Positions 1,509 through 22,478 of a DNA stretch of 24,644 nucleotides are shown here, one piece after another; position 1 is the stretch's first letter; the number at the start of each line of letters is the position of its first letter. The translations under genes were made by a program, and so were the position numbers. The stretch comes from a virus. The notes under the pieces are model-generated. The model ran no database searches, was not told the DNA's origin, and was given only the letters and a program-made list of their open reading frames with translations. The stretch lies in UHGV virus genome UHGV-2020843, one strand, 5' to 3'.

Positions 1509-2365
1509 TCTTCACACTCCCCTACCAGGTTAAGAATCACCGCCGCGCCGTGGTTTTCCATGAATTCGTCCTTTCCACTGTCAAGAAACCAGCGACATAC
1601 CTCAACGGCTTCGACGCGCGTTACGGGTTTGATGGTAGCCAGCAATTTTTCAAGGTAGCGCTCGCGGTCATATACCGATTCGTGATGCTCTGAGTAACCA
1701 AACTCATAGCCCTGTTCTTTAGTTGCAGTGTGGCGAACGCTGTAGAGCCAGTCCCAGTAAACAAACTCACGAACAACGTCAGAAAGCGTATTGGGCTCTG
1801 GCAGTACATCACGATAGCCTTCAACAAATGCCCGGCGCTGTTCATCAATTTCGTTCATACGGCTGCCGTTAATGCTGCCAGCTTTCCTCTCGGCCGGAGT
1901 CCATCCCCAAAGGTGATCGTCGATAAATTTCGGGGAAGACTTGATTACTCGCTCGGCCTCCACATCTTCGAGAGCTGCCTCATAGCTGCCGAACGTGGCC
2001 CTGACTGATGCTGCTTTTTTGATGTCCTCCCGGGCGTTCCTGATTGCCTGTGCCGGGTTATCCATGCCGATGGTACCGAAAGCAACCTGGAAAGGATCGC
2101 CACCATTCGCCAGCAAATAACGCGCGTAACGTTCCTCGGCCTCTTTTGGGGAGATTTCAATTTTCTCCAGCGCGGCTTCGGCTGCGTCCAGATGTGCGGG
2201 TTCGTTCAGACGGATCACCTCCAGCACCCAAAGATAAGCGTCAGTTTGCTTATGCCCGGTGATTCTCCGTTGCTCGGGCAGACGCTTGATGTTTGCGAGG
2301 GCGGAGCTGTGCGCTGCCGTCGGGATGGTGAATAGTGCTTTATGTTCGTTGTTATCAGTACGCAT
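1505..2365 (-). CDS. Hypothetical protein (286 aa) translationally coupled between primase and Q
   Basis: Long ORF with TAATG overlap to primase stop and ATGA overlap to Q start; no motif I can assign. Confidence 0.6.
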   Translation of the reverse strand: MRTDNNEHKALFTIPTAAHSSALANIKRLPEQRRITGHKQTDAYLWVLEVIRLNEPAHLDAAEAALEKIEISPKEAEERYARYLLANGGDPFQVAFGTIGMDNPAQAIRNAREDIKKAASVRATFGSYEAALEDVEAERVIKSSPKFIDDHLWGWTPAERKAGSINGSRMNEIDEQRRAFVEGYRDVLPEPNTLSDVVREFVYWDWLYSVRHTATKEQGYEFGYSEHHESVYDRERYLEKLLATIKPVTRVEAVEVCRWFLDSGKDEFMENHGAAVILNLVGECEE

Positions 2366-3339
2366 TACGCAGCCGCCTTTTTCTTGAAGAAAACCACCTC
2401 ACGAACCTGATCGCCGTTCATGAGCATGTCGTTAAAATCCCCGTTATCCGGGTAGTAGATGCTGATTTTTTCCAGGTCATTTTTTGCCAGTAAGTTGGCA
2501 TGGGCGCATTCCGTGGCCGCAGCCAATCCAGTGGCGCTGTTTACGTCTCGATCTGCGAAAATAATCAAATTTTTCACACCTGCAGGAACACGGAATTTCT
2601 TCATGAATCCGCTGGTCATGGTGGCCCAGGTGTTAACGTTGTATAGCTGCTTGCAGGAAAGAGCCGTTTCGATACCCTCGGCAATTCCGAGGGTCGTCGC
2701 TACCGGGAACATGCGAATAGCGACGGAACGGGCATGATCCAGATAGCTTTCGTCCTGAAGAGATTTCTGGCGCTTCGCTCCGGCAGAATCCCTTAGTTGG
2801 GCTTTCTGATTGCCGTCCAGTAAGGTTCTGTGCAGATAGCAAAGCTCGCCTTTGTCGTCAGTTGCGAGTGAATACAGACACTGGTAAACCTTACCGCCGT
2901 AGCGTTGTTTATCATTGAACTTCACTGCCTCTTGTGGGAGCTGATAAATTCCCCTGGCCTGCAGATATTCCGCCCCGGTAGTTCCTTTCAGGTTGACCAG
3001 TTTCGAAAATTTGGACAGAACCCGATCACGGGCGCTTACGGCATCTGAAGTGCGCGGAAACGCTTCGCGGGTAAAGTTATTACCAATCAGCTGGTCTATT
3101 TCCCTGCAAATTTCATTGAATGGCTTCCCTTGCGTCAGAGTGACAAGCTTCATTCCGTCACCGCTGCCGCAGGTACAGATCCATGTTCCCCGGCCGTCCC
3201 GGTCATCAATACGCAGCTTTCCCCGCGCACCACATACCGGACATTCGCCTTTAAAGTGATTTCTGGCATTAATGGGAGGTAACCCGAAGTGCTCAAAAAT
3301 CATTGCCCATTGACCTTTTGCCGCTTCTGCCGTCTTCAT
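2365..3339 (-). CDS. DNA primase (zinc-ribbon plus TOPRIM domain, phage/P4-type)
   Basis: N-terminal CPVCGARGK...WICTCGSGDG zinc-binding motif followed by TOPRIM-like IAEGIETALS and FADRD acidic motifs; ATGA overlap with helicase stop. Confidence 0.8.
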   Translation of the reverse strand: MKTAEAAKGQWAMIFEHFGLPPINARNHFKGECPVCGARGKLRIDDRDGRGTWICTCGSGDGMKLVTLTQGKPFNEICREIDQLIGNNFTREAFPRTSDAVSARDRVLSKFSKLVNLKGTTGAEYLQARGIYQLPQEAVKFNDKQRYGGKVYQCLYSLATDDKGELCYLHRTLLDGNQKAQLRDSAGAKRQKSLQDESYLDHARSVAIRMFPVATTLGIAEGIETALSCKQLYNVNTWATMTSGFMKKFRVPAGVKNLIIFADRDVNSATGLAAATECAHANLLAKNDLEKISIYYPDNGDFNDMLMNGDQVREVVFFKKKAAA

Positions 3340-4952
3340 GCTCGTTTTCCTAACTGCTGTTTGATATCGCTAATCGCTTTCTGTGCTTGCTGTACTGAGG
3401 ATGGGGCTGCCGTGCCTGATGCCTCCTGCAGGCGCTTGGCCTTCTCCTGCCCTTTCGCATACGCAATCAATTTGTGCCGGATGAAATTAGAGACAGTCGG
3501 GGTGATCTCCATCGGAAAATCGCTTAACCCGTTAGGCCACTCGTCAAACCGTTCGCGAAAGGTATTTGCGCACCAGCCATCGCTGACGGGCTTTTTCCCC
3601 TGCGATACGCGCTGACGCTGATAGAATTTGATCTGACTCCACCAGGCCTGTTTCTCTGCCTTAGTGGGCTGATGCTGGTTTTTACCCAGCTTTTTGAGTT
3701 TGCGGCCGGTGTCGGTATCGACGTCCTCACCGCCCAGCGGCTTATGCCCACATTTCGGGCATACATAGACGCCAGCTGGCTTCATGTAATGGCATTGAGA
3801 GCATTCGTGTGGCAGTTTTTCGGCCCGTTCCTCAGCTGCGCGGCGCGCGCTTTCCTCCATGCCGTCAGACTTACCGGGAAGATCGTCGTACTCGATTGAA
3901 TCCGGATAACCCAAACGGTGCACGGTACCGCTGTGATCGAAGATGAGGCAGGACTCTTTACCCGGTGCGGTGCGCAGGCCACGCCCGAGCGCCTGCAGCC
4001 AGCGAATTTCGCTTTTTGTTGGCCTGGCGTAGATGATGCAACGAACGTCACTATCGAAGCCGGCCACCAGAACGCCCACACTAACGATGATTTTCGTTGC
4101 ACCGGTTTCAAAGCGGTGAATGATGGTCTGGCGTTCATCCACTGGAGTGTCGGCGGTCATGACCTCAGCGTTAACACCCGCCAGGTTAAACTGAATTGTC
4201 AGGTAATTGGCGTGGGCTACGTTGACGCAGAAAGCGATGGTAGGCAGATCCCGGCCATTCTCCAGCCAGTTCTGTACGATGTCGCCCACCAGCGTAGAGC
4301 CGCACATGATTTCAGCCAGCTGCGTTTCGTTGTAATCGCTGCCGTACTCAAGCGATGCTTTGGTTTTAACACCTTTCAGATCCGGCTTAGTTGGCGCGTA
4401 AAATTCATATTTACTCAGATCGCCACGCTGAATTAACTCGCCGATGGTGGTGGGCTTAATCAGTCGGTCATAGTATTTGCCCAGGAACGGGGAAAACGGA
4501 GTACCCGACAGGCCAATCACCTTTACGCCTTTGCCGCGTAGACGGTCGATATCCTTCAGGATGCGTTTTTTACGCAGGTGTGCTTCGTCGATAATCAGCA
4601 GATCGATATTTTCAGGAAAAACACGACGAATAAGCGTATCGGCGCTGGCAATCTGAATTTTCCGGTCCGGATCGTAGTTCGGGTGATCCGCCCAGATATA
4701 ACCGATTTCATCCCCCGGTAATCCATACTCCACGAACCGATTAGCCGTCTGACCGATCAGGATGGTGTACGGTGCACAGAACAGGACGCGCATACCACGG
4801 CTGACAAACCCGGCAACGATGAAGGCCGCCAAACCCGTTTTACCGCTACCGGTTGGCGAATACACCATGAAGGTGTCGTTTGCCTTCCAGTCACGGCGCA
4901 ACATGTTTAGCGCTCGTTCCTGTGCAAAATTCGGCGTGATCGTCAGCTCCAT
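3336..4952 (-). CDS. Phage SF2 DNA helicase (DEAD/DEAH-box type)
   Basis: Walker A SPTGSGKT, Walker B IIDEAHL, C-terminal Cys4 motif CSQCH...CPKCGH; 538 aa; GGGGG ribosome-binding site upstream. Confidence 0.8.
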   Translation of the reverse strand: MELTITPNFAQERALNMLRRDWKANDTFMVYSPTGSGKTGLAAFIVAGFVSRGMRVLFCAPYTILIGQTANRFVEYGLPGDEIGYIWADHPNYDPDRKIQIASADTLIRRVFPENIDLLIIDEAHLRKKRILKDIDRLRGKGVKVIGLSGTPFSPFLGKYYDRLIKPTTIGELIQRGDLSKYEFYAPTKPDLKGVKTKASLEYGSDYNETQLAEIMCGSTLVGDIVQNWLENGRDLPTIAFCVNVAHANYLTIQFNLAGVNAEVMTADTPVDERQTIIHRFETGATKIIVSVGVLVAGFDSDVRCIIYARPTKSEIRWLQALGRGLRTAPGKESCLIFDHSGTVHRLGYPDSIEYDDLPGKSDGMEESARRAAEERAEKLPHECSQCHYMKPAGVYVCPKCGHKPLGGEDVDTDTGRKLKKLGKNQHQPTKAEKQAWWSQIKFYQRQRVSQGKKPVSDGWCANTFRERFDEWPNGLSDFPMEITPTVSNFIRHKLIAYAKGQEKAKRLQEASGTAAPSSVQQAQKAISDIKQQLGKRA

Positions 4953-5380
4953 TGTGCTGCCCCCGTGCTGATGAGATAATAATTTTGTGATGTGGTTTTC
5001 ATGGATTCCCCCTCACATGGCTGGTGGCCTCCCCAAAGGCTGCCAGCCTCCCTTCTGATTCAGCTCCTCTGAAAAAATCACTCTTCCAGGAAGAACCCTT
5101 TTCGTTTCTCAGCGCCTGAGCGCTTTGTACTACCTTGCTGATACAGGCGTTTTTTAAATTGCGCCCTTAAGACAGTGATCTACCTAACCAATGGATCTCT
5201 CCTGTTGGAAAAGACCCTATTCCTGCCCCTACACCCAATCCCCCCTTACCCCCCTTTCCCTCTTCCCCATAAAAACGTACTACTTCCCTAGTACATATGA
5301 GGAGTTGGGTCAGTTGGTTGCCAACCTGAACAGGCACCTTTAAGCCTGCTTCTGTTCGGGTACCTTTAAACCCGAAACAA

Positions 5381-5674
5381 TCAGGATCGCGATTGCGTTC
5401 CAGCCAGGGGAGGTTCGGCGGTATACCCCTGTAAAGCTCTGCCCTGATTTCTCACAAACAGGCGAAGCCTTGTGTTTGCTTCATGCCTTGCCCGGTTCTC
5501 CTTGCGGTACGAAACGGGTTCGGCCTCGAACGTCTCCTGATACACTGCTGCATAACGCTGCATGGCTTTTTGTTTGGCGGCCATACTGAGTGACTGCAGT
5601 TGCTCACCTATCCACTGACTGTCCGCAAGGCAAAACACAGCTGGCATCTCTAACTGCTGAAATGCCTGTGACAT
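5381..5674 (-). CDS. Hypothetical protein (97 aa) immediately downstream of cro (cII-like position)
   Basis: In-frame ATG at 5674 lies 1 nt after the cro stop; the open frame extends to 5776 (131 aa) but that would overlap cro by about 100 nt. No recognisable similarity to lambda CII. Confidence 0.4.
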   Translation of the reverse strand: MSQAFQQLEMPAVFCLADSQWIGEQLQSLSMAAKQKAMQRYAAVYQETFEAEPVSYRKENRARHEANTRLRLFVRNQGRALQGYTAEPPLAGTQSRS

Positions 5675-5675
5675 A

Positions 5676-5906
5676 TCAGATATCCCCGGAAGGTCGTGGG
5701 AATACCGTTGGGATATCAGGCCGTAATTCGTATGGCTTAACCTCCCCGTTTGTAGCCATTGAGATAGCGACTGCATTTTGAGGGGAAATCTTCTGATGGT
5801 TGTTCAGCCACTTCCAAACAGCCCCCTGAGTGACACCGATGGCTCTAGCCAACGCAGATTGGCCCCCTGCCAATCTCACTGCTTTCTGAATAGCGTTTTC
5901 TGACAT
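5676..5906 (-). CDS. cro: Cro/YdaS-like helix-turn-helix regulator
   Basis: 76-aa ORF with HTH-like segment QSALARAIGVTQGAVWKW, divergent from the cI-like repressor across an operator-containing intergenic region. Confidence 0.7.
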   Translation of the reverse strand: MSENAIQKAVRLAGGQSALARAIGVTQGAVWKWLNNHQKISPQNAVAISMATNGEVKPYELRPDIPTVFPRPSGDI

Positions 5907-5922
5907 ATTAGCGCCCTTAAAA

Positions 5923-6010
5923 ATACTTTAGGATTTGGATGATATTACCATAGTATTAATTTAGCAAGAATACTCTAGTGTTGAATGGAAAAAGCTTTTG
6001 TACTAAATTA
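5923..6010. promoter_or_regulatory. Immunity switch: three operator sites (5923-5936, 5945-5958, 5970-5983) with divergent PR-like and PRM-like promoters
   Basis: Three 14-bp sites each 2 mismatches from palindrome AATACTATAGTATT, spaced 22-25 bp. Minus strand -35 TTGCTA (5963-5968) and -10 TATCAT (5940-5945), 17-bp spacer, for cro. Plus strand -35 TTGAAT (5982-5987) and -10 TAAATT (6005-6010), 17-bp spacer, for cI. Confidence 0.5.
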
Positions 6011-6039
6011 ATCCGATCGTATTAACCAGAGGCAAAAAC

Positions 6040-6747
6040 ATGAGTGGAACGACTTTTTCGGACCGGCTAAGAGACAGCATGCAGAAGGCTGGGCTGACCC
6101 AAAGCCAGTTAGCTGAAGCAGTCGGAGTGTCACAGGGGGCAATTCAGAAACTTGTATCTGGTAAGGCAAAGTCGACAACTAAGCTTGTTCAGATAGCTAA
6201 TGTCCTTGGTGTTCGCCCTGAATGGTTAAGCGAAGGCGTTGGTGCGATCCGTAAATCAGATGATTTCCCTCCAGAAGAAAAGTGGAGCAAAGTCGAGACC
6301 TGGGATAGCAACACGCCTTTAGAATCTGATGAAGTGGAAGTCCCATTCCTTAAAGATATTGAGTTTGCATGCGGTAGCGGCAGAGTTATGGAAGAAGATT
6401 ACAACGGTTATAAACTGAGGTTTTCGAAGTCTACCCTGAGAAGAGTTGGAGCAAGCACAGATGGTTCAGGCATTATCTGTTTCCCGGCTGCCGGGAACAG
6501 TATGGAACCACTCATACCAGACGGTACAACAGTGGCTGTTAACATCGAAGACAAAAAAATCGTTGATGGAAAGATTTACGCGATCAATCAGGAAGGGTGG
6601 AAGCGGATCAAACTCCTATACCGGACAGGCCCGGATGAGTTGACTATCCGTAGCTATAACGCAGAAGAGTACCCTGATGAGGTAGTGAAGATGTCCAGCG
6701 TAGAGGTCGTTGGTAGAGTGTTTTGGACTTCTACAGTTTGGAACTAA
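6040..6747 (+). CDS. cI: CI-type phage repressor (N-terminal HTH, C-terminal S24/LexA-like peptidase domain)
   Basis: 235 aa; HTH LTQSQLAEAVGVSQGAIQKL; C-terminal AGNSMEP Ser motif and downstream Lys (KRIK), typical of autocleaving LexA/CI repressors; GAGG ribosome-binding site upstream. Confidence 0.85.
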   Translation: MSGTTFSDRLRDSMQKAGLTQSQLAEAVGVSQGAIQKLVSGKAKSTTKLVQIANVLGVRPEWLSEGVGAIRKSDDFPPEEKWSKVETWDSNTPLESDEVEVPFLKDIEFACGSGRVMEEDYNGYKLRFSKSTLRRVGASTDGSGIICFPAAGNSMEPLIPDGTTVAVNIEDKKIVDGKIYAINQEGWKRIKLLYRTGPDELTIRSYNAEEYPDEVVKMSSVEVVGRVFWTSTVWN

Positions 6748-6748
6748 G

Positions 6749-6770
6749 CCGGGGAAACCCGGTTTTTTTT
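6749..6770 (+). terminator. Intrinsic terminator after cI
   Basis: CCGGG-GAAA-CCCGG hairpin followed by T8, immediately after the cI stop codon. Confidence 0.65.
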
Positions 6771-6828
6771 GCGAAAAAAAATAAAATCCATTATTTTCAT
6801 TAGGTTACATGAAAAAGAAAATAAGATT

Positions 6829-6869
6829 AATACTATAGTATTGACGCGGGATTAATCCTCCCCTATTCT
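6829..6869 (+). promoter_or_regulatory. PL-like early promoter with perfect palindromic operator
   Basis: Perfect 14-bp palindrome AATACTATAGTATT (6829-6842) overlapping -35 TTGACG (6841-6846); 17-bp spacer; -10 TATTCT (6864-6869); about 30 bp upstream of ORF 6901. Confidence 0.5.
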
Positions 6870-6900
6870 CATCTCATCGGCAAACAACGGAGCCAGTGAG

Positions 6901-7221
6901 ATGACGACCAATACGACAATCAAAAAATTATATCAGCTTGTTGATATTCCAGATTTTCGCTACAGCAAAGATAGTTCAAGTATTGATTATGGTGATATTG
7001 CATCAGATTGCGATACTAAAACTGTTTCTATCTTTGAAGCCATTAACCATATCAGCTTAAATATTTTTTCCATTGCTGAAGATAAAGAAATCAGCAAAGA
7101 AAAGATATTAAACCTTTCTTGTATCATCGCTGACCTTGCAGAAATTGGAATGGCAACGAATAAAATTTCTCAAGCTGCCTCATATCTTTCTGGATTAAAG
7201 GATGGCAATCATGGCGCATGA
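6901..7221 (+). CDS. Hypothetical small acidic protein (106 aa), first gene after the PL-like promoter
   Basis: ORF in AT-rich segment directly downstream of predicted early promoter; no recognisable motif. Confidence 0.5.
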   Translation: MTTNTTIKKLYQLVDIPDFRYSKDSSSIDYGDIASDCDTKTVSIFEAINHISLNIFSIAEDKEISKEKILNLSCIIADLAEIGMATNKISQAASYLSGLKDGNHGA

Positions 7222-7405
7222 ATTTTCATTAGAACAAGCGAAAGAGAAAGCATATCAGGCAGAAATAATCTGCAAAATGATTGAGTTATACCCCAACAAA
7301 ATGGACTGTTCTGAAATCGAGGCCATTGCAGCATTATTAAGTAAGTTAACCAGTGATGTTTGTGCATGGTTAATTGAAGAGCAAGCTATTAGATCCAACG
7401 CTTAG
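7211..7405 (+). CDS. Hypothetical small acidic protein (about 65 aa)
   Basis: ORF overlapping the previous gene's end (alternative start at 7202); AT-rich. Confidence 0.45.
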   Translation: MAHEFSLEQAKEKAYQAEIICKMIELYPNKMDCSEIEAIAALLSKLTSDVCAWLIEEQAIRSNA

Positions 7406-7578
7406 TTTTTTTAGATTCCTAAATAAATAACAGCTTTATTGCTGAGGGGATTCCATACACTTTTTTAGGAAAAAACATGATAAACATCAACGCCTTTAAT
7501 ACTGCTAAGTTATTTTGTTCAGCCGGTTACTGGGATATTGCGAATTTATATCTCAGGAAAGCATACGGGAGATAAATC

Positions 7579-7803
7579 ATGTCAACACAAGATCGCCAAG
7601 ACGTGCAAGGTGTGAATATTAAAGCTGAACAACTTAACTTCCTTATGCAAACAATTCACGCTCACCATAAGGATTTTGACTGCCATCAACTTGATGGCCT
7701 TTTAGGTCTGGCTTATGACCTTGCCGGGTCGGTATATAGCTGGCCCGAGGCAGAGGAAAGGATCGTTTTAGAAAATGAAGATGCACAAAGAAAGGTGTAT
7801 TAA
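7579..7803 (+). CDS. Hypothetical small acidic protein (74 aa)
   Basis: ORF with GGGAG ribosome-binding site; stop TAA immediately followed by the next ATG. Confidence 0.5.
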   Translation: MSTQDRQDVQGVNIKAEQLNFLMQTIHAHHKDFDCHQLDGLLGLAYDLAGSVYSWPEAEERIVLENEDAQRKVY

Positions 7804-8169
7804 ATGGATAATTTAACCAATACGTATCGCCGAAGAATTTTAAAAGCTGCGTTATTACGCCACCAGCGTAAAACCGGAAGCACCTGCATCATTATTAATA
7901 TGCCTAAAGGTGGAATAAACACAGTCGAATTAACAGAAATACTGCTTGATGGTTTGTTGAGACGATTCGAAAAGCTGGCTCTCAGTGAATACGGGAATAT
8001 CGACGGTGTAAAAGCCATCAGAGGAATTTACAGCAACGCCGTAGATGTGAATGGCAGCGGTGAGTTCCTGACAGAAAGCGGAAAGGCATTAATCGACGAT
8101 CTCATTGCTGAGCTGGTCGAATTTGCTAAGAAACAAAAATCAGTCACAGCGGAGACAAGCCATGAGTGA
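7804..8169 (+). CDS. Hypothetical protein (121 aa) with arginine-rich N-terminus
   Basis: ORF begins MDNLTNTYRRRILKAALLRHQRK; contiguous with flanking ORFs. Confidence 0.5.
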   Translation: MDNLTNTYRRRILKAALLRHQRKTGSTCIIINMPKGGINTVELTEILLDGLLRRFEKLALSEYGNIDGVKAIRGIYSNAVDVNGSGEFLTESGKALIDDLIAELVEFAKKQKSVTAETSHE

Positions 8170-8374
8170 TCAGACACCAATTATCACGCACGAACCAGTA
8201 AATATCGTGCTGACAATCGAGAACGGGAAAGTTATCCACGCGCGCCCGGTTCAGAACGGCGAGGTTACAGCATCGCTGGAGACTTTTTTATGGATGGCTG
8301 AACAAGCCGGTTACACGATCACCCCACCTGCAGGAGAGAAGGACAATGGCCCTGACAGCGATACGAATTCCTGA
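8162..8374 (+). CDS. Hypothetical small acidic protein (70 aa); candidate antitoxin partner of the following ORF
   Basis: ATG at 8162 with GGAG ribosome-binding site 7 nt upstream; overlaps upstream stop and overlaps downstream ORF by 29 nt. Confidence 0.45.
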   Translation: MSDQTPIITHEPVNIVLTIENGKVIHARPVQNGEVTASLETFLWMAEQAGYTITPPAGEKDNGPDSDTNS

Positions 8375-8567
8375 GTGGGTGCACCTGCAGGCGGTCCATG
8401 TCCTCCGCCAGTTCAGAGCCAGGCGGATTCATCCCTGCCGTATGCACGGCTCCGGAAACCTGAGCCTGAGGGTTAATCGCCGCTGGCGGCTGCTGTCCCG
8501 AGACGGCGGCCATAACTGGGAAGTAATGAGCCATGAACGATACAGCAAACTGAAGGACAGAAAATGA
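8346..8567 (+). CDS. Candidate RelE/ParE/HigB-superfamily toxin-like protein (73 aa)
   Basis: Segment GSGNLSLRVNRRWRLLSRDGGHNWEVMSHERY resembles the RelE/HigB core (recalled E. coli HigB GGNELRVVAMVFF...YIREVMTHKEYD); strong ribosome-binding site GGAGAGAAGGA; GC-rich relative to neighbours. Confidence 0.4.
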   Translation: MALTAIRIPEWVHLQAVHVLRQFRARRIHPCRMHGSGNLSLRVNRRWRLLSRDGGHNWEVMSHERYSKLKDRK

Positions 8568-8665
8568 AAGCGCTTTTCCTTTCCCTGCTGTTTGGCCTGT
8601 TATTGGTGGCCGTCGTTTTCGGCGCGCTGATTGAGTACAAATTTTTGATGGATTTCGGGAGTTGA
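8564..8665 (+). CDS. Small hydrophobic peptide (33 aa), likely membrane-inserted
   Basis: MKALFLSLLFGLLLVAVVFGALIEYKFLMDFGS; ATGA overlap with upstream stop; AAGGA ribosome-binding site. Confidence 0.4.
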   Translation: MKALFLSLLFGLLLVAVVFGALIEYKFLMDFGS

Positions 8666-8667
8666 TT

Positions 8668-8880
8668 ATGAAAACGGGACAACAACCAGCTTACCCATGC
8701 CCTCGCACTGATTCTCCTCAGGGTATGACATATCGCCAGTATCTTGTAAGTCAGCTCGCGCCCGTAATCGCTGCTCAGTTCTTCGAAAGTAGCGCATGGA
8801 CCGACTACGACGACATGGGCGGCTCTCTGATGATGATGGTCGACAGCATTATTGAAGCTGAAAAGGAGACAGCACAATGA
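8668..8880 (+). CDS. Hypothetical small acidic protein (70 aa)
   Basis: ATG at 8668 with GGGAG ribosome-binding site; the ORF track extends it to a TTG at 8662. Confidence 0.45.
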   Translation: MKTGQQPAYPCPRTDSPQGMTYRQYLVSQLAPVIAAQFFESSAWTDYDDMGGSLMMMVDSIIEAEKETAQ

Positions 8881-9275
8881 GCAAATCAGCAAAAGAGCTT
8901 TATACCGTACCTGAATGGATGCGCCCATACCTTACGTTATTCCAAAACACTGGAGGTAATGACGTTGAGGATCTGCTGCACGATGAAGACACCAATATGT
9001 TCGCAAATAGCATTCGGTACATGTTGATCGTGTCCGCTCGTTCACAATTCAGATTGCTGATGGATATGTATAAAAATGGGCAGATTATCGAGCTTGAAAC
9101 GATGAAAACAGACCCTGTTGGTGAAGATTATCAGTCAGCGATCGACATCTTGCGCGACAGAGCTGCTCGCGAACTCGATGGTGGTTTTCGCTCACATCAC
9201 AACGCCCTGATTTATGCAGCTAATGAACTGGAAAATGCCCAGGCCTTCGGGCGGGAGGTCAGCCATGAGTCTTGA
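8877..9275 (+). CDS. Hypothetical protein (132 aa)
   Basis: ORF with ATGA overlap to the upstream stop; no recognisable motif. Confidence 0.5.
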   Translation: MSKSAKELYTVPEWMRPYLTLFQNTGGNDVEDLLHDEDTNMFANSIRYMLIVSARSQFRLLMDMYKNGQIIELETMKTDPVGEDYQSAIDILRDRAARELDGGFRSHHNALIYAANELENAQAFGREVSHES

Positions 9276-9474
9276 TTGCGTACCCCTTTCTACGTACTGC
9301 AGGGACGCGGGGGAAACGGTAGAAGCCGTTAACAAACGGATACAAAGGGGGTTATGGAAGGAGGGAGTACATGTATTAAAAGTCGATGGCGTTAAAGAAC
9401 GCTGGATTGACTTAACGGAGGTTTCAAAGTGGGCAAGAAAGAACAAGGATCATTATCTCTCCCAAGAGGAGTAA
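9265..9474 (+). CDS. xis: Excisionase-like protein
   Basis: About 69 aa, immediately upstream of and overlapping the integrase; GGGAGG ribosome-binding site; small basic DNA-binding-like protein in the canonical xis position. Confidence 0.55.
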   Translation: MSLDCVPLSTYCRDAGETVEAVNKRIQRGLWKEGVHVLKVDGVKERWIDLTEVSKWARKNKDHYLSQEE

Positions 9475-10601
9475 CCATCCGCCAGCATAAAACTGGCGAC
9501 ACTCTGGTTATCACTTTCACATACAAAGGGGTTCTGTGCCGGGAGCCCCTCTCCAAAATGGAAGCAAACGCGCGCGGTGTGAAGTACGCCGAGCGCCTGC
9601 TCGGGGAGATACAGAACCAGATCGTCAGTGGCACCTTTGAATATGCGAAATATTTCCCCAACTCCAAAAAGCTGGAGCTATTCGGGGTGGTGAAGAAAAC
9701 CAAAAACATAAAGTCCTACCTGGACGAGTACCTCAAAATCTGCCAGAACCGCAACCTGTCCCCGTCGACTATAAATGGTTATGAAAAATGCCTGTCGGCA
9801 CTGTCAGCTCTGCATAAACTCCACGTGTCAGAACTGACGCCAGCGGTCCTTAAAAACTGGATAGCCAGCCGGAAAACAAAGCTGAAAACGACCAGGAATA
9901 ACCTTTCGTTTCTGCGCAGCGCAATCGATGAAGCTGTTACGGATGGCCTGCTGACCATTAACCCGGTAACCCTCGTCAGCGCCAGCCGGTACCACGTGAT
10001 CGACAGCAGCCCGAGCGCCGACGATTACGAGGTTGACCCGTTCACGCCAGCGGAGACCCTCGCCATTTACCAGAACTGCAGGTACCCGGAATGGGAAAAC
10101 CTGTTCCGCTTTGCTTTCAATACCGGTCTGCGGAGCTCCGAACTGTGCGCGCTGCGCTGGCCTGATCTCGACACCATCGCGAACACAGCCCACGTTCAGG
10201 CGGCCAGTGTCGTAGGGGTACTTAAAGGCACCAAGACAAAAGCCGGTACCCGCAAGGTGGAGCTGAACAGTGAGGCGCTGGCGGCCCTGCAGGCGCAGAA
10301 GCAATACACCTTTATGAAAAGTGAGTTCATATTCAGCGATCCGAAAACGGGAGAACCCTGGGCGAACGCCGACGCTATCCGTAAAAAAGCATGGGTGCCG
10401 ACCCTGAAAAAAGCTGGCGTGCGCTACCGTAACCCGTACCAGACGCGGCACACATTCGCCACCAAGCATATTAGCCAGGGCGTTAACCTCTTCTGGCTTG
10501 CCGGACAGATGGGCCACAAAGGGCCGGAAATGATATTCCGCAACTACGGTAAATACCTGGCTGAATATGACGGTAAAACCGCGATTTCAACCGCGCTGTA
10601 G
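9429..10601 (+). CDS. int: Tyrosine site-specific integrase (lambda Int-like)
   Basis: 390 aa; C-terminal catalytic region with RHTFATKH, GHKG and YGKY (R-H-R-Y type residues); located next to the attachment-site core. Confidence 0.85.
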   Translation: MGKKEQGSLSLPRGVTIRQHKTGDTLVITFTYKGVLCREPLSKMEANARGVKYAERLLGEIQNQIVSGTFEYAKYFPNSKKLELFGVVKKTKNIKSYLDEYLKICQNRNLSPSTINGYEKCLSALSALHKLHVSELTPAVLKNWIASRKTKLKTTRNNLSFLRSAIDEAVTDGLLTINPVTLVSASRYHVIDSSPSADDYEVDPFTPAETLAIYQNCRYPEWENLFRFAFNTGLRSSELCALRWPDLDTIANTAHVQAASVVGVLKGTKTKAGTRKVELNSEALAALQAQKQYTFMKSEFIFSDPKTGEPWANADAIRKKAWVPTLKKAGVRYRNPYQTRHTFATKHISQGVNLFWLAGQMGHKGPEMIFRNYGKYLAEYDGKTAISTAL

Positions 10602-10839: not shown

Positions 10840-10963
10840 GTGCCCTCAATTTGTCCCGCGAAGTCCGAAGAGAACTAATTAAATCCGAACCTTTTAGGCC
10901 CATTGATAGGCCCAACGAAAAGCTCTATTGTTTACGTTGGGCCTAAACGCAGGGAGACTCCCC

Positions 10964-12205
10964 ATGGCAAGAAAAACCAAGCCGTTAACTGATACGGAAA
11001 TCAAAGCCGCCAAACCTAAAGATGCCGATTACCAGCTTTATGACGGTGACGGGCTTACTCTGTTAATCAAGTCCAGTGGCAGTAAGCTTTGGCAATTCCG
11101 TTACTATCGGCCTTTGACCAAGCAGCGAACCAAACAGAGCTTCGGTGCCTATCCTGCCGTCTCGCTTTCTGATGCACGTAAACTCAGAGCCGAATCTAAA
11201 GTTTTATTGGCGAAAGACATTGATCCTCAGGAACATCAGAAAGAACAGGTGAGGAATTCTCAAGAGGCCAAAACCAATACCTTCTTGTTAGTTGCCGAGC
11301 GTTGGTGGAATGTGAAGAAAACCAGCGTAACAGAGGACTATGCCGACGATATCTGGCGCTCGCTTGAGAGAGATATTTTCCCGGCAATCGGTGATATCAG
11401 TATCACTGAGATTAAGGCTCATACTCTGGTTAAAGCAGTTCAGCCGGTTCAGGCCAGAGGTGCATTAGAGACTGTTCGCCGCCTTTGTCAGCGTATTAAC
11501 GAAGTCATGATTTATGCGCAGAACACAGGCCTGATTGATGCTGTTCCTAGTGTAAATATCGGAAAAGCTTTCGAGAAACCGCAAAAGAAAAACATGCCAA
11601 GCATCCGGCCGGATCAACTTCCGCAGCTAATGCACACCATGCGTACGGCAAGTATCAGCATGTCCACAAGATGCCTGTTCATGTGGCAACTTCTAACCAT
11701 CACCCGCCCTGCCGAAGCTGCTGAGGCTCGATGGGATGAGATCGATTTCAATGCTAGCGAATGGAAAATTCCTGCAGCTCGAATGAAGATGAACCGGGAC
11801 CATACGGTTCCACTATCTGATGGGGCTCTTGCTATTCTGGAAATGATGAAGCCTCTCAGTGGTGGCCGAGAATTTATCTTTCCTAGCCGTATCAAGCCCA
11901 ACCAACCAATGAATAGCCAAACAGTGAATGCAGCACTCAAGCGTGCTGGCTTAGGAGGTGTACTTGTTTCACACGGCTTGCGTTCTATCGCCAGTACGGC
12001 ACTCAATGAGGAAGGATTTCCACCTGATGTCATTGAAGCAGCGCTTGCTCATGTAGACAAAAATGAGGTGCGTCGCGCTTATAACCGCAGTGATTATCTT
12101 GAGCAACGTCGTCCGATGATGCAATGGTGGGCTGATCTCGTAAAAGCAGCAGATAGTGGTAGCATCGTTTTAACTCATTTGAGCAAAATTCGTCTTGTCG
12201 GATAA
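10964..12205 (+). CDS. intA: P4-type tyrosine integrase IntA
   Basis: 413 aa starting MARKTKPLTDTEIKAAKPKDADYQLYDGDGLTL; AGGGAG ribosome-binding site; C-terminal HGLRS...AHVDKNEVRRAYNRSDY catalytic region. Confidence 0.9.
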   Translation: MARKTKPLTDTEIKAAKPKDADYQLYDGDGLTLLIKSSGSKLWQFRYYRPLTKQRTKQSFGAYPAVSLSDARKLRAESKVLLAKDIDPQEHQKEQVRNSQEAKTNTFLLVAERWWNVKKTSVTEDYADDIWRSLERDIFPAIGDISITEIKAHTLVKAVQPVQARGALETVRRLCQRINEVMIYAQNTGLIDAVPSVNIGKAFEKPQKKNMPSIRPDQLPQLMHTMRTASISMSTRCLFMWQLLTITRPAEAAEARWDEIDFNASEWKIPAARMKMNRDHTVPLSDGALAILEMMKPLSGGREFIFPSRIKPNQPMNSQTVNAALKRAGLGGVLVSHGLRSIASTALNEEGFPPDVIEAALAHVDKNEVRRAYNRSDYLEQRRPMMQWWADLVKAADSGSIVLTHLSKIRLVG

Positions 12206-12448
12206 AATATTTATCAGCCCAGCTCTCTGGGCTGATATTTCTAAAAGATCGCACTAAATAGCTACGCGGAATAGTGCTCTACTTTCGTTTAGCCCTTTCA
12301 GAGGTAAGACATTAGGGCAATTTCACTGTATGACTGCGCAGTCATCGAGTCTGTGGGGTGTTGCTCCTTTTGCAACGTATCACTTGTCAATAAATAGAAA
12401 GTGTAGATGTATTAGGCGCAGCTATTTAGTCTATATGGCAAGTAGTAA

Positions 12449-13405
12449 TTATTTACTTCTTTTTTTTCTACGAACAGCGCTATCGAAAGCTTGTTTTACA
12501 TCTTCATTTTTTAAAGACCATTGATTTAAAATAGTATCAACCAAAGCATCTTGACTCATTGTTGCTACACGATATTTTTTATTTTGATTATTTATCTCAA
12601 ACTCTGACATTTGAATAAAATCCCATAGCGGTTCGATAAGTTCATTAACTGCTACAACCTTATTTTTCCACCCATCATTCGGAACAGAGTCATTAATTAG
12701 CTCAACCAACTTCAGTTGAATGATATGGTACACTTCCGCTTTGCTTTTGCCACCCTTCTTTCCTGCACTCCGCCTGACTTCTGATAATTTTTTTTGATTA
12801 CAAACAGAGATGTTAAACCAAGTCATACCTATGCACTTATCAAATAACTCCGCAGCCCGATGAAATGCTTTAAAGGCAACGTTTTCATTTTCAGACATGA
12901 TAGATTTTCCCCAGAAAAAAGAGATTGAGGCGAACATAAGGTGTGCCTTGAAAATGTCATTAATGGAAAATGGCTCGATAACAAGAGGTAAAAACGTTTC
13001 CTTGGTAAGGTTTGAACTTAGATTTTTCCAGCATTCTTGAGCTGGATCATATAATTCAGTGTATTCTTCCTTTATCTCCAGTTGCCCATTCACTGTATGG
13101 TGCCTTGTTTCCCATGGTACATCGCAGGAATATAACCTCACACGAGTACCTATTTTCTCAGAGCTCCAGAATTGCTCTCGCATTCTGCCTAGCTCAATCC
13201 GTATTTCCGGATGATCTTCCTCTAGAACATCAGTATCCACCGCCCATTCGCATTCGGACATGTGATAGGCGAGATCACGTCGTTTTCTACAAATTTGTTC
13301 ATAAAAATCATTCAGAGAAATCATAAAACCACCATAAATCAATGTATTAGAGGTTGTAAAAATTGTATTTTTGGTACATGGGTTTTTTGCCTTAAAGATA
13401 CCCAT
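12449..13405 (-). CDS. yfjH: Uncharacterised island protein YfjH (318 aa from ATG at 13405; alternative start at 13324)
   Basis: AT-rich ORF between intA and alpA, on the opposite strand; position and length match recalled CP4-57 yfjH. Confidence 0.65.
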   Translation of the reverse strand: MGIFKAKNPCTKNTIFTTSNTLIYGGFMISLNDFYEQICRKRRDLAYHMSECEWAVDTDVLEEDHPEIRIELGRMREQFWSSEKIGTRVRLYSCDVPWETRHHTVNGQLEIKEEYTELYDPAQECWKNLSSNLTKETFLPLVIEPFSINDIFKAHLMFASISFFWGKSIMSENENVAFKAFHRAAELFDKCIGMTWFNISVCNQKKLSEVRRSAGKKGGKSKAEVYHIIQLKLVELINDSVPNDGWKNKVVAVNELIEPLWDFIQMSEFEINNQNKKYRVATMSQDALVDTILNQWSLKNEDVKQAFDSAVRRKKRSK

Positions 13406-13448
13406 TAATCTCTCTGCAACCAAAGTGAACCAATGAGAGGCAACAAGA

Positions 13449-13661
13449 ATGAACAATCGATCGGCCGTTAGAATACTACGGTTACCAGCGGTTATCCAAA
13501 AAACAGGTATGGCACGGGCCACCATCTATGACTGGTTGAACCCCAAATCACCACGATACGATGCCACCTTTCCCAAAAAGCGAATGCTCGGCGTGAAATC
13601 TGTCGGATGGATTGAGGCCGAGATTGATGAGTGGTTATCACAACGCTGTAAACTTATTTGA
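13449..13661 (+). CDS. alpA: AlpA-family transcriptional regulator (excision/int regulator)
   Basis: 70 aa, MNNRSAVRILRLPAVIQKTGMARATIYDWL HTH typical of AlpA/phage regulatory proteins. Confidence 0.85.
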   Translation: MNNRSAVRILRLPAVIQKTGMARATIYDWLNPKSPRYDATFPKKRMLGVKSVGWIEAEIDEWLSQRCKLI

Positions 13662-13789
13662 GGGTGTTACATGAATTCATACTCAATTGCTGTCATCGGA
13701 GTGTAAACATCCTGCTATTTCCGCCATTAATAGCGGAATAGCCATATTTGCTAAACAATTTCTTAATTTAATTAAATAAGAGGCATTGC

Positions 13790-15199
13790 ATGTTCAATGG
13801 TCGTCCTTTCCCTGTAGATGCATTTCCTAAAATTATCAGGAATGCAATTTATGAAGTGGAACAGCATACGCAGGCCCCTCAAGGTTTGATTGCTGCTTCT
13901 GCTCTTGGGGTAATTTCTCTTGCCTGTCAGAACCGGATTGATGTTTGCCGATTGAATAATCTACGTGGCCCGGTATCACTTTTCTTAATGACTCTGGCTG
14001 AATCAGGTGAACGTAAGAGTACGGTTGATAAACTGCTGATGAAGCCATTATATCAACTGGAAGAGGATTTATTTGAAAAATACACCCACGATCTTACCGC
14101 ATGGAGAAATGATGAAGCAATTTTTAATATTGAAAAAAAAGCACTGATGTCAAAACTTAAATCAGATATTCGACGTAACAAAGATCACTTGGCAACAAAT
14201 GAAAGACTTAAAGAACTACTTACGACAAACCCGAAAGCTCCAGTGAGATTCAAATTTTTATTTAACGATGCCACACCTGCAGCTATTAAAGCTCATCTCT
14301 GTGGGCACTGGCGATCAGTCGGCATCATGTCTGATGAAGCTGGGATCATTTTTAATGGTTACACACTTAACGAGCTGCCGTTTATCAATAAGATGTGGGA
14401 TGGTTCAATATTTACGGTGGAAAGGAAAAACGAGCCCGAGAAATTAATTAGAGATGCAAGAATAACACTGTCGCTGATGGTCCAGCCTAATGTTTTTAAG
14501 GGTTATATCGACAGGAAAGGAGATATGGCAAAGGGGATTGGATTTTTTGCACGGTGCCTCATGTGCCAGCCTGCTTCAACACAAGGTAACAGAAAAATTT
14601 CCAACCCAATTTTTTCAAATGAACATTTGCCGGTATTTCACCAACGTCTTATGGAAATTGTTAATGAGAGCATCATTAAAATTAATGAAAATAATCGCAT
14701 CTGCCTCCGATTCTCTGCAGAAGCAGAAAGACATTGGATCGAATTCTACAACCAGGTCGAGTCAGAAATGAGAATGATTGGCCTTCTTTATGATTTTAAG
14801 GATTATGCTTCTAAAATGGCGGAGAACATGGCGAGGCTTGCTGCCTTACTTCATTACTTCAGCGGTGATGGAGGCGATATATCTGTTACCGCAGTAAAAG
14901 CAGCAGTGGAGATAGTGGCTTGGTATATTGAAGAATACATCCGCTTGTTCTCTAAAAAAGAAGAGTTTTCTTTAGATGTTTCAGAAGCAGATGAGCTTTA
15001 TTGTTGGATAAAAGATTACTGCACGCAAAAATTTTCTTCCTGCATCAAGAAAAATATTATCTTACAATTTGGGCCAAATAAATTTAGAAATCGTGACAAG
15101 GCAAATGAATTAATTAGAATCTTAATTTCACAAAACAAAATATTTATATCTTCATGGGGTAAAACAAAAATAATAAACATAACTCATTGTGTTTTTTGA
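13790..15199 (+). CDS. yfjI: YfjI, DUF3987-type protein (possible replication or primase-associated)
   Basis: 469-aa ORF in AT-rich region following alpA, matching CP4-57 order. Confidence 0.75.
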   Translation: MFNGRPFPVDAFPKIIRNAIYEVEQHTQAPQGLIAASALGVISLACQNRIDVCRLNNLRGPVSLFLMTLAESGERKSTVDKLLMKPLYQLEEDLFEKYTHDLTAWRNDEAIFNIEKKALMSKLKSDIRRNKDHLATNERLKELLTTNPKAPVRFKFLFNDATPAAIKAHLCGHWRSVGIMSDEAGIIFNGYTLNELPFINKMWDGSIFTVERKNEPEKLIRDARITLSLMVQPNVFKGYIDRKGDMAKGIGFFARCLMCQPASTQGNRKISNPIFSNEHLPVFHQRLMEIVNESIIKINENNRICLRFSAEAERHWIEFYNQVESEMRMIGLLYDFKDYASKMAENMARLAALLHYFSGDGGDISVTAVKAAVEIVAWYIEEYIRLFSKKEEFSLDVSEADELYCWIKDYCTQKFSSCIKKNIILQFGPNKFRNRDKANELIRILISQNKIFISSWGKTKIINITHCVF

Positions 15200-15351
15200 T
15201 TTTAATGACAATCTAAAAGGACTTAATTTAAGAGTAAAAACAAACTCTAAACCCAGTTCGGATAAAAGCTTGTCATCTTGATAGGTAATATATAGGTACA
15301 TAGACACATCAGAACGATCACTTACTCCAATATCATTGGCCAGGATACTAT

Positions 15352-15978
15352 ATGACATACGATAGTGAATTCGGATCACATGTATCCCTATATCGGGATA
15401 GAATCAAACAGGTTATTGATGACTCCCTAAACGAACATCTTAACTCAATGATTCTACGTGTTGATCTGCATGACCCAATTGATACAGAAAATATGGATAA
15501 CCCATTCTTTCAACCCAGGGTTGACTCTGGTGCTATATCTCGCTTTACCAGTGCGTTAAAAGCAAAGCTTAAACACGATAAGCATATTAAAACTCAACGG
15601 AAAGACTGGCCTGATACTCGACATTCAACCTTACGTTACGCATGGGTCCGAGAATATACCAAAAATAGAAAGCGGCATTACCATTTGATACTGTGTTTCA
15701 ATCAGGATGCTTATTATCATTTAGGTGATTACGACTTAAACCGTAACACGTTACGTACAATGATAACGACAGCTTGGTACAGTGCACTTGGCATCCCTAT
15801 AGATAGCTCGGGGAAGTTAGTTAATTACCCGCCAAATGGCAAATACCTTCTCAATCGTAAAAGGGACAACTTTGAGCAGACTTATAGCGATTTGATGAAT
15901 AGGGTGGATTACATGACCAAAGTAAGGACTAAAATAGTCGGTGACGGAGACCGTAATTTCGGCTGCAGTCGCGGGTAA
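15352..15978 (+). CDS. yfjJ: YfjJ, YagK/YfjJ-family protein (inovirus Gp2-like replication-initiation fold)
   Basis: 208-aa ORF with AGGA ribosome-binding site, followed by a hairpin terminator. Confidence 0.7.
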   Translation: MTYDSEFGSHVSLYRDRIKQVIDDSLNEHLNSMILRVDLHDPIDTENMDNPFFQPRVDSGAISRFTSALKAKLKHDKHIKTQRKDWPDTRHSTLRYAWVREYTKNRKRHYHLILCFNQDAYYHLGDYDLNRNTLRTMITTAWYSALGIPIDSSGKLVNYPPNGKYLLNRKRDNFEQTYSDLMNRVDYMTKVRTKIVGDGDRNFGCSRG

Positions 15979-15996
15979 TTTATTTTTTACAACAAT

Positions 15997-16035
15997 GGCC
16001 TTTCTTATGGCTGGAAAGGCCTGATTTGTTTGTAT
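15997..16035 (+). terminator. Intrinsic terminator between convergent yfjJ and yfjK
   Basis: GGCCTTTC-9 nt loop-GAAAGGCC hairpin followed by T-rich TGATTTGTTTGTATT. Confidence 0.6.
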
Positions 16036-16155
16036 TAAGATATCGGTAATCTTTTGATGGTTGGAAGCCCGTCCTGGTAGACGACCTAGCCTACCGAAGA
16101 TGTGAGTTATTCAAAAATGTCGCTTTCCCGCGTTCCGTAGACAAACGTACCTAAA

Positions 16156-19958: not shown

Positions 19959-20217
19959 TTAGACATCCGTGACAATTTTGCGAAAATTAAGGAGATGTTA
20001 TGACACAGTCCAATCGGATCACTGCATCATCACCAGTGATCTAAATACTTCACAGCCATTCTCGGTCGCAGGTATCAAGCTTTTCAGGATTCCACAAATA
20101 TTGTAACCCTGACGTCTAATTTGGTTATATAACATACTGCCCCAACTAACGTAAGGTAGGCACAGCCTTAATCAAGGTTTTGGTTTTCAAATAGTTCAGA
20201 GCTGAGACCGCCAACCG

Positions 20218-20284
20218 CACTATGGCACTATGGCACTATGGCACTATGGCACTATGGCACTATGGCACTATGGCACTATGGCAC
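20218..20284. repeat. Perfect tandem octamer repeat (TATGGCAC) x 8, intergenic
   Basis: Eight uninterrupted copies of TATGGCAC (20221-20284) preceded by a partial CAC; lies between the yfjM stop and the yfjL start. Confidence 0.95.
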
Positions 20285-20333
20285 CGCCAGCGATTGTAAT
20301 CACACTTGATATTATAAAACACAGTTGCACGCA

Positions 20334-20597
20334 TTATTTCCTGGTTGGTAGGGTCATATCTCGATGCTCTTTGAGCAATGTCAACATCGCGTGTTCATGG
20401 CTTTCTATATTGTTGATGCCTTGCCCATCCGGACCCCACTCCTTATAGCTCATCATGATGGCTTGTTTTGGGCTCTCTGCTCGTTCTGTTTCGACGTAGA
20501 ATTTTTTCTTGTCTGCTGGCGAATAATTACTAAGTATCGAGTTGCTGCTTGGTGAGATCAGGAAGAGGTTACCGAAACGATGGACATCATCCCCCAT
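20334..20597 (-). CDS. yfjM: Small uncharacterised island protein YfjM
   Basis: 87-aa ORF in the CP4-57 position between yfjL and rnlA. Confidence 0.6.
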
Positions 20598-20738
20598 TTT
20601 GTGGACTGCCCCCCCGGTAGACGATCCTGCCCTATAGTTGGAGTGCCCCCTATTCAGGTGGCTAAATTTAGCAAATCAATACACTTCAGGGGGGTATTAT
20701 TGTAGAGTTTCCCCATATGTTTCTATGGGATCCAGGAA

Positions 20739-22176: not shown

Positions 22177-22478
22177 AACTCTTCTTTCTAAACGAACCAG
22201 TATAGAATTCGCCCTTTTGGCATGATATTAACTTGTCCAATATGATCAAATAGCATTAACCCCCCCTCACAACGTCCTGCATAGGGAACACGTTTTCCCC
22301 TGTGCACCCACGACTAAATTTCCCCCCCTTTAAACTTCTCAATAATGTCACCAATTTTCTGGAAATCCTATGATGCCTTTCCCGGTAAATGGTGCTGTGA
22401 GTTCAGAAAGATTCTGCAATCTATGTGCATTGAAAAAATCTTCAGATAGATATCATTCTCCTGAACAATCCGATGAAC

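Follow-up and report, generated by a model that had tools for sequence, protein, structure and literature searches.

A conserved pair of G-runs upstream of the Eru1-type helicase gene in lambdoid prophages: a candidate transcription-opened replication origin

Origins of replication associated with R-loops or G-quadruplexes (G4) are already known as a kind. In bacteriophage T4, oriF and oriG are R-loop origins at which the promoter transcript is used for replisome loading and the superfamily 2 (SF2) helicase UvsW acts on the R-loop; these origins rely on a downstream unwinding element and not on G-runs. PriA-dependent initiation occurs at R-loops, and ori-lambda, which is served by the O protein, also needs transcription from pR. 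For ColE1, the firing of which needs transcription, Masukata and Tomizawa are said to have found in 1990 that a G-run (G6) in the RNA II transcript is required for a persistent hybrid with the C-run of the template. The second of the mitochondrial conserved sequence blocks (CSB II) consists of two adjacent G-runs, as does the core of the element described here. This element is a G-rich tract on the minus strand (5215-5268) of the virus genome UHGV-2020843 (24,644 nt; the whole of this stretch is called the window), where it lies upstream of a helicase gene in the early-right operon of a lambdoid prophage. At CSB II, a hybrid G4 of RNA and non-template DNA is found at the leading-strand origin, together with termination and primer formation (PMC3488243, PMC4176368).

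The tract and CSB II are alike in their G-rich non-template strand, which follows a promoter downstream and adjoins an origin, here a candidate one. Described for the mitochondrial element are a G4 in the RNA and in the hybrid, a persistent R-loop, transcript 3' ends and a helicase proposed to resolve the structure (PMC3488243, PMC4176368). The polymerase there is POLRMT, whereas here the E. coli multisubunit RNA polymerase and a bacteriophage are concerned; the G pair here is accompanied by conserved CCA and GATC boxes and, for the majority of variants, by 4-5 further G-runs, and it is known from sequence alone. The apparent lack of an initiator is shared with ColE1. That system works with RNase H, Pol I, a long folded RNA II and a promoter dedicated to the primer, whereas for the present element no RNA II-like structure, Rfam hit or promoter of its own was found, and helicase and primase are encoded by the phage itself. 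Unlike T4 oriF and oriG, the module has no AT-rich unwinding element. The RepL-type iteron origins of sister phages and ori-lambda occupy the same slot of the early-right operon, upstream of the replication helicase and primase, but the G module is without iterons, an initiator gene or an AT-rich region. The early-right position also recalls nutR (boxA-boxB) and HK022 put, and CTTTTCCAACAG is loosely boxA-like by eye; unlike these, the element is not repeated in the pL operon, and neither an N gene, a boxB- or put-like fold nor an Rfam match goes with it.

The minus strand at 5215-5268 reads GGGGAAGAGGGAAAGGGGGGTAAGGGGGGATTGGGTGTAGGGGCAGGAATAGGG (33 G, 14 A, 6 T and 1 C) and is the sense strand of the early-right operon. 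A preliminary description of this DNA had reported a C-rich plus strand here, with coordinates and content that are exact. The six G-runs it listed (GGGG, GGG, G6, G6, GGG and GGGG) are all present, but its count fell short by a seventh run, GGG at 5217-5215, and its term 'polypurine' is only approximate (47/54 purines). The non-coding gap of about 430 bp that it placed upstream of the helicase gene measures 428 bp (4953-5380), is free of open reading frames (ORFs) and is flanked by a 97-aa gene, phrog_852 (5674-5381), and by the helicase gene (4952-3336), both on the minus strand.

Relatives were gathered via the helicase, via phrog_852, via a context-free DNA pattern and via BLAST. This gave 235 unique variants from many Enterobacterales, of which 229 were complete enough for the G-run pair to be scored and 227 were scored for GATC; 13 clade representatives were aligned across clades. 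The hosts include Escherichia, Salmonella, Klebsiella, Enterobacter, Citrobacter, Cronobacter, Yersinia, Serratia, Pectobacterium, Xenorhabdus, Providencia and Morganella, and across them the module starts shortly 3' of the phrog_852 stop codon. The tract was found in every complete relative examined, so that its absence from close relatives, which the preliminary description had allowed for, was not seen. The tract is real, and the comparison shows it to be only one of three conserved blocks in a larger non-coding module of about 135 nt.

The universal core of the tract is GGGGGG-TAA-GGGGGG (5240-5254, minus strand), and the columns of the pair are invariant in the alignment of the 13 representatives. 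The G-run pair is present in 229/229 scorable variants, with 4-9 G (mode 6) in run 1 and 5-8 G (mode 6) in run 2. The two runs are separated by 1-3 A/T-rich bases (TAA in 167 variants, AAA in 31, A in 12, TA in six, TTT in five, TT in four and others in four). Most variants have 6-7 runs of three or more G, and 23 of the 229 have the pair alone, among them Fels-1 (GGGGAGGGGG) and Shiga toxin (Stx) phages (GGGGGTAAGGGGG). GAGAGATAAGAGAGA was designed as a substitute for the G6TAAG6 core. The second block, TCTTTTCCAACAGG (5201-5214, minus strand), has the cross-clade consensus GC-N4-CCA(A/G), in which the C and CCA columns are invariant across the representatives; it is also kept within the window's own clade. 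The third block, GATCCATTGGTTAGGTAGATCACTGTCT (5170-5197, minus strand), has the consensus TTA(R)GTAGATC(W)C(W)GT and contains two GATC (Dam) sites, at 5194-5197 and 5177-5180. Its T-GATC is invariant in the same alignment, and a GATC lies 55-64 nt 3' of the G pair in 210/227 variants. The shortest gaps, those of Pectobacterium (146 nt between the G tract and the helicase ATG) and Serratia OS31 (a gap of 188 nt), hold a T-run, the G tract, the CCA box, the GATC box and little else. As side observations, GATC is the sole fully invariant tetranucleotide of the third block, with variable flanks (TAGATCAC, ACCGATCTTG, GGGATCGATCAG), and annotated DNA methyltransferase genes lie near the module in several relatives.

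Nucleotide diversity was calculated for 100 unique genomes of the window's own clade. It was 0.036 for the G tract; for the helicase gene in the same genomes it was 0.038 at codon position 1, 0.026 at position 2 and 0.350 at fourfold-degenerate sites. The tract is thus about as conserved as codon positions 1-2 and ten times below the fourfold sites, and in 10,000 resamples of fourfold sites a value as low as that of the tract never occurred. Because the pair is always kept while run lengths drift and flanking G-runs come and go, these comparisons point to strong purifying selection that sees the G-runs, rather than the bases between them or the exact sequence.

The propensity of the tract to form a quadruplex, which the preliminary description had suggested checking by prediction, was borne out by three calculations. 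The absolute G4Hunter score of 2.4 is the highest in the 24.6-kb window and was matched in 2/500 dinucleotide shuffles of the whole window. The stretch 5240-5268 satisfies the canonical four-run pattern (G3+N1-7 x4) and is its sole occurrence on the minus strand of the window. With G4 energies included, ViennaRNA placed a quadruplex at the tract in the minimum-energy fold of the window sequence and of 14/15 clade representatives, and it predicted a two-layer G4 in variants having just the G-run pair. The tract exceeds chance, and its conservation is a stronger argument than the G4Hunter shuffles. The four-run motif is real in the window, but it does not hold as the conserved unit: it is lacking in Fels-1, the Stx phages and loci L281, L282 and L225, and 23/229 variants are limited to two runs, so that it is the G-run pair, and not a four-run G4 motif, that is conserved. 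Nearest-neighbour energies after Sugimoto 1995 and SantaLucia 1998 likewise single out the tract: of all sites on both strands of the window, it is the one at which an RNA:DNA hybrid is most favoured relative to duplex DNA (-17.8 kcal/mol per 30 steps, z = -5.8).

The context-free pattern used for the search, G5-N3-G5-N45-70-TAGATCWCWGT, matched at least 120 viral contigs. Among the matches listed with enough flanking sequence, the helicase gene followed 186-786 nt downstream in 113/114, and the one exception is a deletion remnant. Where extra ORFs (STM0899-like or HNH-like) are present they sit between the module and the helicase gene, and the module stays beside phrog_852; that it does so despite these insertions argues against a translation signal of the helicase gene.

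Three arrangements of this region were distinguished. In the great majority of relatives, phrog_852 and the G module stand upstream of the orthologous helicase and primase genes. In a second arrangement (L333-L335), phrog_852 is followed by an ORF of 164-184 aa with a winged-helix domain, the G module is missing and the helicase is 59-67% identical. In L333 (3315-4130) three AGGAC-N6-GTCC repeats precede the winged-helix ORF, which scores 19.0 bits against RepL (Pfam cut-off 20.3) and also matches HTH_36 and MarR; no repeat family of the AGGAC-N6-GTCC type was found in L335. By its sequence this second arrangement looks like an alternative origin cassette. The third arrangement, in Vibrio and Pseudoalteromonas phages, has iterons and an annotated RepL without phrog_852, next to a helicase and primase that are 55-57% identical. 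The comparison suggests that the G module fills the slot otherwise holding a classical origin and its initiator. As phrog_852 also accompanies the alternative cassette, a role as the module's dedicated initiator is improbable.

The genes around the module belong to a described replication type. The helicase (3336-4952, minus strand) is an SF2 DEAD/DEAH protein, Eru1A-like and by weak profile matches RadD/RecG-like, and the primase (2365-3339, minus strand) is a toprim/zinc-ribbon protein, Eru1B-like. Together they correspond to the 'Eru1' replication type of Llarena et al. (PMC8044961). Members of this type are TL-2011c, the O104:H4 Stx2a phage P13374, PA2 and VT2phi_272, and many O157 Stx phages carry the module. 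No O-, RepA- or DnaA-like family was found among the early-operon proteins of the window. The minus-strand early-right operon runs from cro (5906-5676) through phrog_852, the gap, the helicase and primase genes and a gene for an unknown 286-aa protein to the Q antiterminator gene, and minimal operons in Providencia PSTCR3 and Morganella pMM1680-3 comprise cro, phrog_852, the module, helicase, primase and Q. A promoter-like site lies at 5967-5939 on the minus strand; the tract is on the sense strand of the pR operon, and in every relative pR transcription has the G-runs on its non-template strand.

Our tentative reading, to which we would give somewhat less than an even chance, is that the tract is the core of a cis-acting, initiator-less replication-origin element of the Eru1-type module, opened via an R-loop or a hybrid G4 during pR transcription. 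The preliminary description had left an origin element, a transcriptional pause and a regulatory RNA side by side; the comparative evidence (linkage, slot equivalence, the lack of a recognisable initiator and selection on the G-runs) favours the origin. On the sequences compared, the element is non-coding, fixed in strand relative to transcription, exclusive to this replication module and interchangeable in position with iteron-plus-Rep cassettes. Origin activity, R-loop or G4 formation and all of the later steps we infer, and they would proceed as follows. On loss of the repressor, pR transcription would cross the element with the G-runs on the non-template strand, and the G-rich RNA would remain hybridized to the C-rich template, giving an R-loop. 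A further or alternative possibility is a hybrid G4 to which the RNA and the displaced DNA strand each contribute their paired G5-6 runs. The duplex would in this way be held open without a dedicated origin-binding initiator, and from the open structure or the RNA 3' end the phage SF2 helicase and primase, perhaps assisted by host PriA or Pol I, would start DNA synthesis. The CCA and GATC boxes may be a sequence-specific loading or priming site, with GATC as a possible Dam-methylation checkpoint. A wider proposal, which we regard as rather doubtful, is that the Eru1-type lambdoid phages (O104:H4 and O157:H7 Stx2a phages and many Klebsiella, Salmonella and Enterobacter prophages) replicate from such an initiator-less origin, at which pR transcription across a CSB II-like pair of G-runs would trigger firing, and that the SF2 helicase is a PriA/UvsW-like loader that recognizes R-loops.

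Several observations weigh against a transcription-opened origin. There are no iterons in the gap, in which the one repeat is a clade-specific two-copy repeat of 21 nt, so that the usual iteron and initiator signature is missing. Neither DnaA boxes (TTATNCACA, up to one mismatch) nor the IHF consensus was found in the gap, and a scan for oriC 13-mers was likewise negative or weak. No AT-rich unwinding element occurs in the module: the least stable 20-step stretch of 4700-5900 falls at 4966-4994, in a short upstream ORF (uORF) next to the helicase gene, at -21.5 kcal/mol against a window-wide maximum of -18.4 kcal/mol. No origin is named for the Eru1 module in PMC8044961 or PMC8951638, and our literature searches returned no mention of the motif or of an Eru1 origin. 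Linkage to the helicase operon is equally expected of a transcriptional or RNA-level regulator, the slot equivalence is one of position, and the RepL assignment in L333 is just under the Pfam cut-off. phrog_852 could itself act as an initiator by binding to the CCA or GATC boxes, with the G-runs as accessories. The cumulative GC-skew minimum lies nearby and lends no support, since the divergent pR and pRM units about 700 bp off could explain it. The mitochondrial hybrid G4 has been proposed to inhibit primer use, which makes the sign of any effect uncertain (PMC3488243, PMC4176368). Finally, the linkage, conservation and propensity data also fit an attenuator, an RNA leader or a duplex protein site.

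An attenuator or pause site, an analogue of tR1, is an unlikely competitor: a weak hairpin and U-run, followed by an RNA or hybrid G4 behind RNA polymerase, would slow or partly terminate pR transcription in phages without N, timing or dosing helicase, primase and Q. It would account for the position of the element between the immunity genes and the delayed-early genes and for the AU-rich hairpin with a run of T5-9 directly upstream of the tract in most clades; it also agrees with the fact that neither an N gene nor a nut-like copy was seen in the pL leader, and premature termination through a G4 is known for CSB II (PMC3488243, PMC4176368). However, a consensus terminator scan was negative on the minus strand of the gap, the stems are short, AU-rich and different between clades, and within the clade alifold places the U-run region in a larger stem. 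The invariant CCA and GATC boxes 45-65 nt downstream, and the exchange of the module for an iteron-plus-Rep cassette, are left unexplained by attenuation. If the G-rich, C-poor stretch acted instead in the RNA, it would shield 428 untranslated nucleotides from Rho or RNase, or it would serve as a platform for the 30S subunit or a CsrA- or Hfq-like protein that sets mRNA stability and downstream translation. G indeed exceeds C on the sense strand of the gap (132 G versus 78 C), Shine-Dalgarno (SD)-like and GGA motifs are plentiful in the tract, and one-sided substitutions in the neighbouring predicted hairpins mostly preserve G-U pairing. We nevertheless hold such a leader to be distinctly improbable, as conservation across clades takes the form of blocks of sequence and composition with no consensus structure, compensatory covariation is almost absent within the clade, evasion of Rho requires low C only and not a strict pair of G5-6 runs, and the invariant GATC points to recognition at the DNA level. 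No Rfam family was matched either: searches of the whole window at gathering thresholds and of 4800-6100 at permissive settings gave just two chance-level hits (E = 6.6).

Recognition of DNA need not involve an open structure, and the three sequence blocks with their roughly fixed spacing, the operator-like palindromes (GTACTA-N6-TAGTAC and others) that flank the core in a clade-specific manner and the constant neighbourhood of phrog_852 would suit a duplex site at which phrog_852, the helicase, the primase or a host factor reads the G-runs and the CCA and GATC boxes, G4 and R-loop being irrelevant. There is little probability in this, because variation of run length from 4 to 9 G, of the spacer from 1 to 3 nt and of the flanking runs from 2 to 9 is unusual for a protein that reads duplex DNA, phrog_852 also accompanies the iteron-plus-Rep cassette that lacks the G module, and its model is without a known DNA-binding fold. 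Least credible by far is an antisense insulator, in which the C-rich, G-poor plus strand (33 C and 1 G in 54 nt) would be a Rho-loading (rut) site that ends antisense transcripts before cro and cI. The position of cI downstream on the plus strand agrees with it, but no plus-strand promoter is predicted in or near the gap, and the paired-run architecture, the GATC and CCA boxes and the exclusivity to the replication module would go unexplained.

Several other candidates were considered and rejected. A small ORF of 13 codons in the tract (MGKRERGVRGDWV, ATG at 5270) loses its start in relatives (ACG in pRM11060, GTG in L015) and is shifted in frame by changes in G-run length. A pseudogene of the 122-aa STM0899-like ORF of Fels-1 and phi467 was dismissed, as tblastn was negative in the gap and in Fels-1 that ORF is itself preceded by a G tract. 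A nut or put element was not supported, since no gap element is repeated in 6748-9500 (the pL operon). The GTACTA-N6-TAGTAC palindrome is not a cI or Cro operator: it differs from ATTAATAC..GTATTAAT and is not enriched in the window (four matches versus 4.6 expected). A promoter scan of the gap was negative on both strands, which disfavours a replication-gene promoter or an oop-like antisense RNA. An apparent plus-strand terminator at 5331-5348 is a hairpin with the loop TTAAAGGT and lacks a real U-run; on the sense strand the scan for intrinsic terminators was negative in the gap, and the hairpin at 5294-5277 is AU-rich, not GC-rich. A T7-like promoter noticed by eye in one Xenorhabdus variant (TAGATCACTATAGGGG) is not conserved, and no RNA polymerase was found among the window proteins scanned. 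Klebsiella and Morganella 'plasmids' of 37-42 kb offered no evidence for an autonomous origin, as they look like whole phage genomes, with lysis and antitermination genes in the stretches examined. Conserved RNA structure could not be argued from covariation: two-sided changes are too few within the clade, and only sequence blocks align across clades.

The tract is flanked by further elements. Directly upstream of it lies an AU-rich hairpin, GTACTA-GGGAAG-TAGTAC (5270-5294, minus strand, including the downstream G-TTTTT-A), with a 6-bp stem at 5294-5277 followed by G and then T5; distant clades have another hairpin and a run of T5-9 at this position. The downstream flank (5127-5166, minus strand) is clade-specific, with a hairpin GGGCG-CAATTTAAAAAA-CGCC (5166-5146) and the sequence GTATCA-N6-TAGTAC (5144-5127), and its diversity of 0.173 is above that of the core. 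The 18-bp palindrome GTACTA-N6-TAGTAC (5277-5294) and GTATCA-N6-TAGTAC (5127-5144) stand on either side of the core, about 150 bp from each other. At both places the inverted repeats of other clades differ from these (TTTAGAC/GTCTAAA and ATAGTT/AACTAT), and in Fels-1 and Xenorhabdus the two flanking sites could pair over 12-16 bp. These inverted repeats may be clade-specific protein sites or the arms of a long-range stem.

Just 3' of the phrog_852 stop codon are two 21-nt repeats, 26 nt apart (5326-5372, minus strand), each forming a hairpin with the identical 8-nt loop TTAAAGGT. These hairpins appear in the alifold consensus; one copy is present in Fels-1 and Klebsiella and none in distant clades, and the repeats are probably clade-specific and outside the universal core. 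In ENT39118 the closing pairs of the two hairpins are swapped. After the G pair, two clades have a hairpin with a GAA loop that shows compensatory changes (AGCCCGAAGGGCT versus AGTGCGAAGCACT), which hint at selection on a single-stranded form.

At the helicase end of the gap, the uORF of 19 codons (MKTTSQNYYLISTGAAQWS, 4943-5002, minus strand) overlaps the helicase ATG by 10 nt. Upstream of it come an imperfect hairpin that is conserved, GGCTGGCAGCC..GGCCACCAGCC (5016-5045), and the SD sequence GAGGGGG (5008-5014). The arrangement is kept in Fels-1 as well as in the window's clade, and the helicase is probably translationally coupled through it. In Fels-1, phi467 and Stx phages, an ORF of 122-125 aa with a PD-(D/E)xK-like motif stands between the module and the helicase gene (L006:2616-2984; L108:2627-3004), of which the window keeps only a short DNA remnant at 5075-5092 (CTTCCTGGAAGAGTGATT).

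The gene directly upstream of the module, phrog_852 (5381-5674, minus strand, 97 aa), is always found there. An AlphaFold model is a three-helix bundle (predicted local distance difference test score 73). No Pfam or NCBIfam family and no Foldseek match was found, sequence hits in the PDB had only E > 0.6, and 418/418 homologous clusters are named 'hypothetical'.

No earlier account was found of an R-loop or G4-associated origin element that belongs to an SF2-helicase/primase module of a temperate enterobacterial phage and is conserved as a run pair together with CCA and GATC boxes; if the reading is true, it would be the first G4/R-loop origin described in a temperate phage of enterobacteria. 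Should an R-loop or hybrid G4 form, the principle of ColE1, T4 and mitochondria would extend to lambdoid phages, the pair would be one of few bacterial G4-type motifs with demonstrable strong purifying selection, and G4 ligands or RNase H levels would suggest themselves as a means of modulating Stx-phage induction. Phage replication speed matters for toxin output, and the Stx2a phage of the 2011 O104:H4 outbreak strain is among the carriers of the module; the unannotated cis element of about 135 nt offers a handle on the start of replication in Eru1 phages.

Contig breaks within the tract recur in public assemblies. Of 17 contigs that start up to 2.5 kb upstream of the helicase gene, eight start 290-325 nt upstream of it (L030, L042, L044, L048, L053, L060, L064 and L105), within the tract, and four further loci have contig ends there (L110, L121, L141 and L166). 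Such breaks are likely to result from sequencing or polymerase drop-out at the G-runs, although a repeat-induced break is possible; they give an indirect hint of a physical G4, and tract-linked breaks in short-read prophage assemblies matter for Stx-phage typing. One circular-looking contig of 38.6 kb has both its start and its end within the G tract.

The window as a whole is a lambdoid prophage of the ENT39118/Fostie/YP3/Fels-1 kind. In its immunity region the S24 repressor gene lies at 6040-6747 on the plus strand, and the operators, of the form ATTAATAC..GTATTAAT, lie at 5943-6023 (OR) and 6826-6867 (probable OL/pL). From pL to the first gene (6901) the leader measures only about 30 nt, and it contains no nut-like element; no recognisable N gene was found. 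The prophage integrase gene is at 9429-10601, and beyond it a second integrase gene and a CP4-57-like island occupy 10928-24307. The GC content of the island is low, 0.31-0.43, at about 12.5-16 kb. Its genes encode DUF3987, a YfjJ-like protein, the RnlA toxin (20739-21812), a GTPase and a DUF932 protein, together with a Hachiman-type defence pair composed of HamA with a Cap4 nuclease domain (18342-19958) and a helicase (16156-18345).

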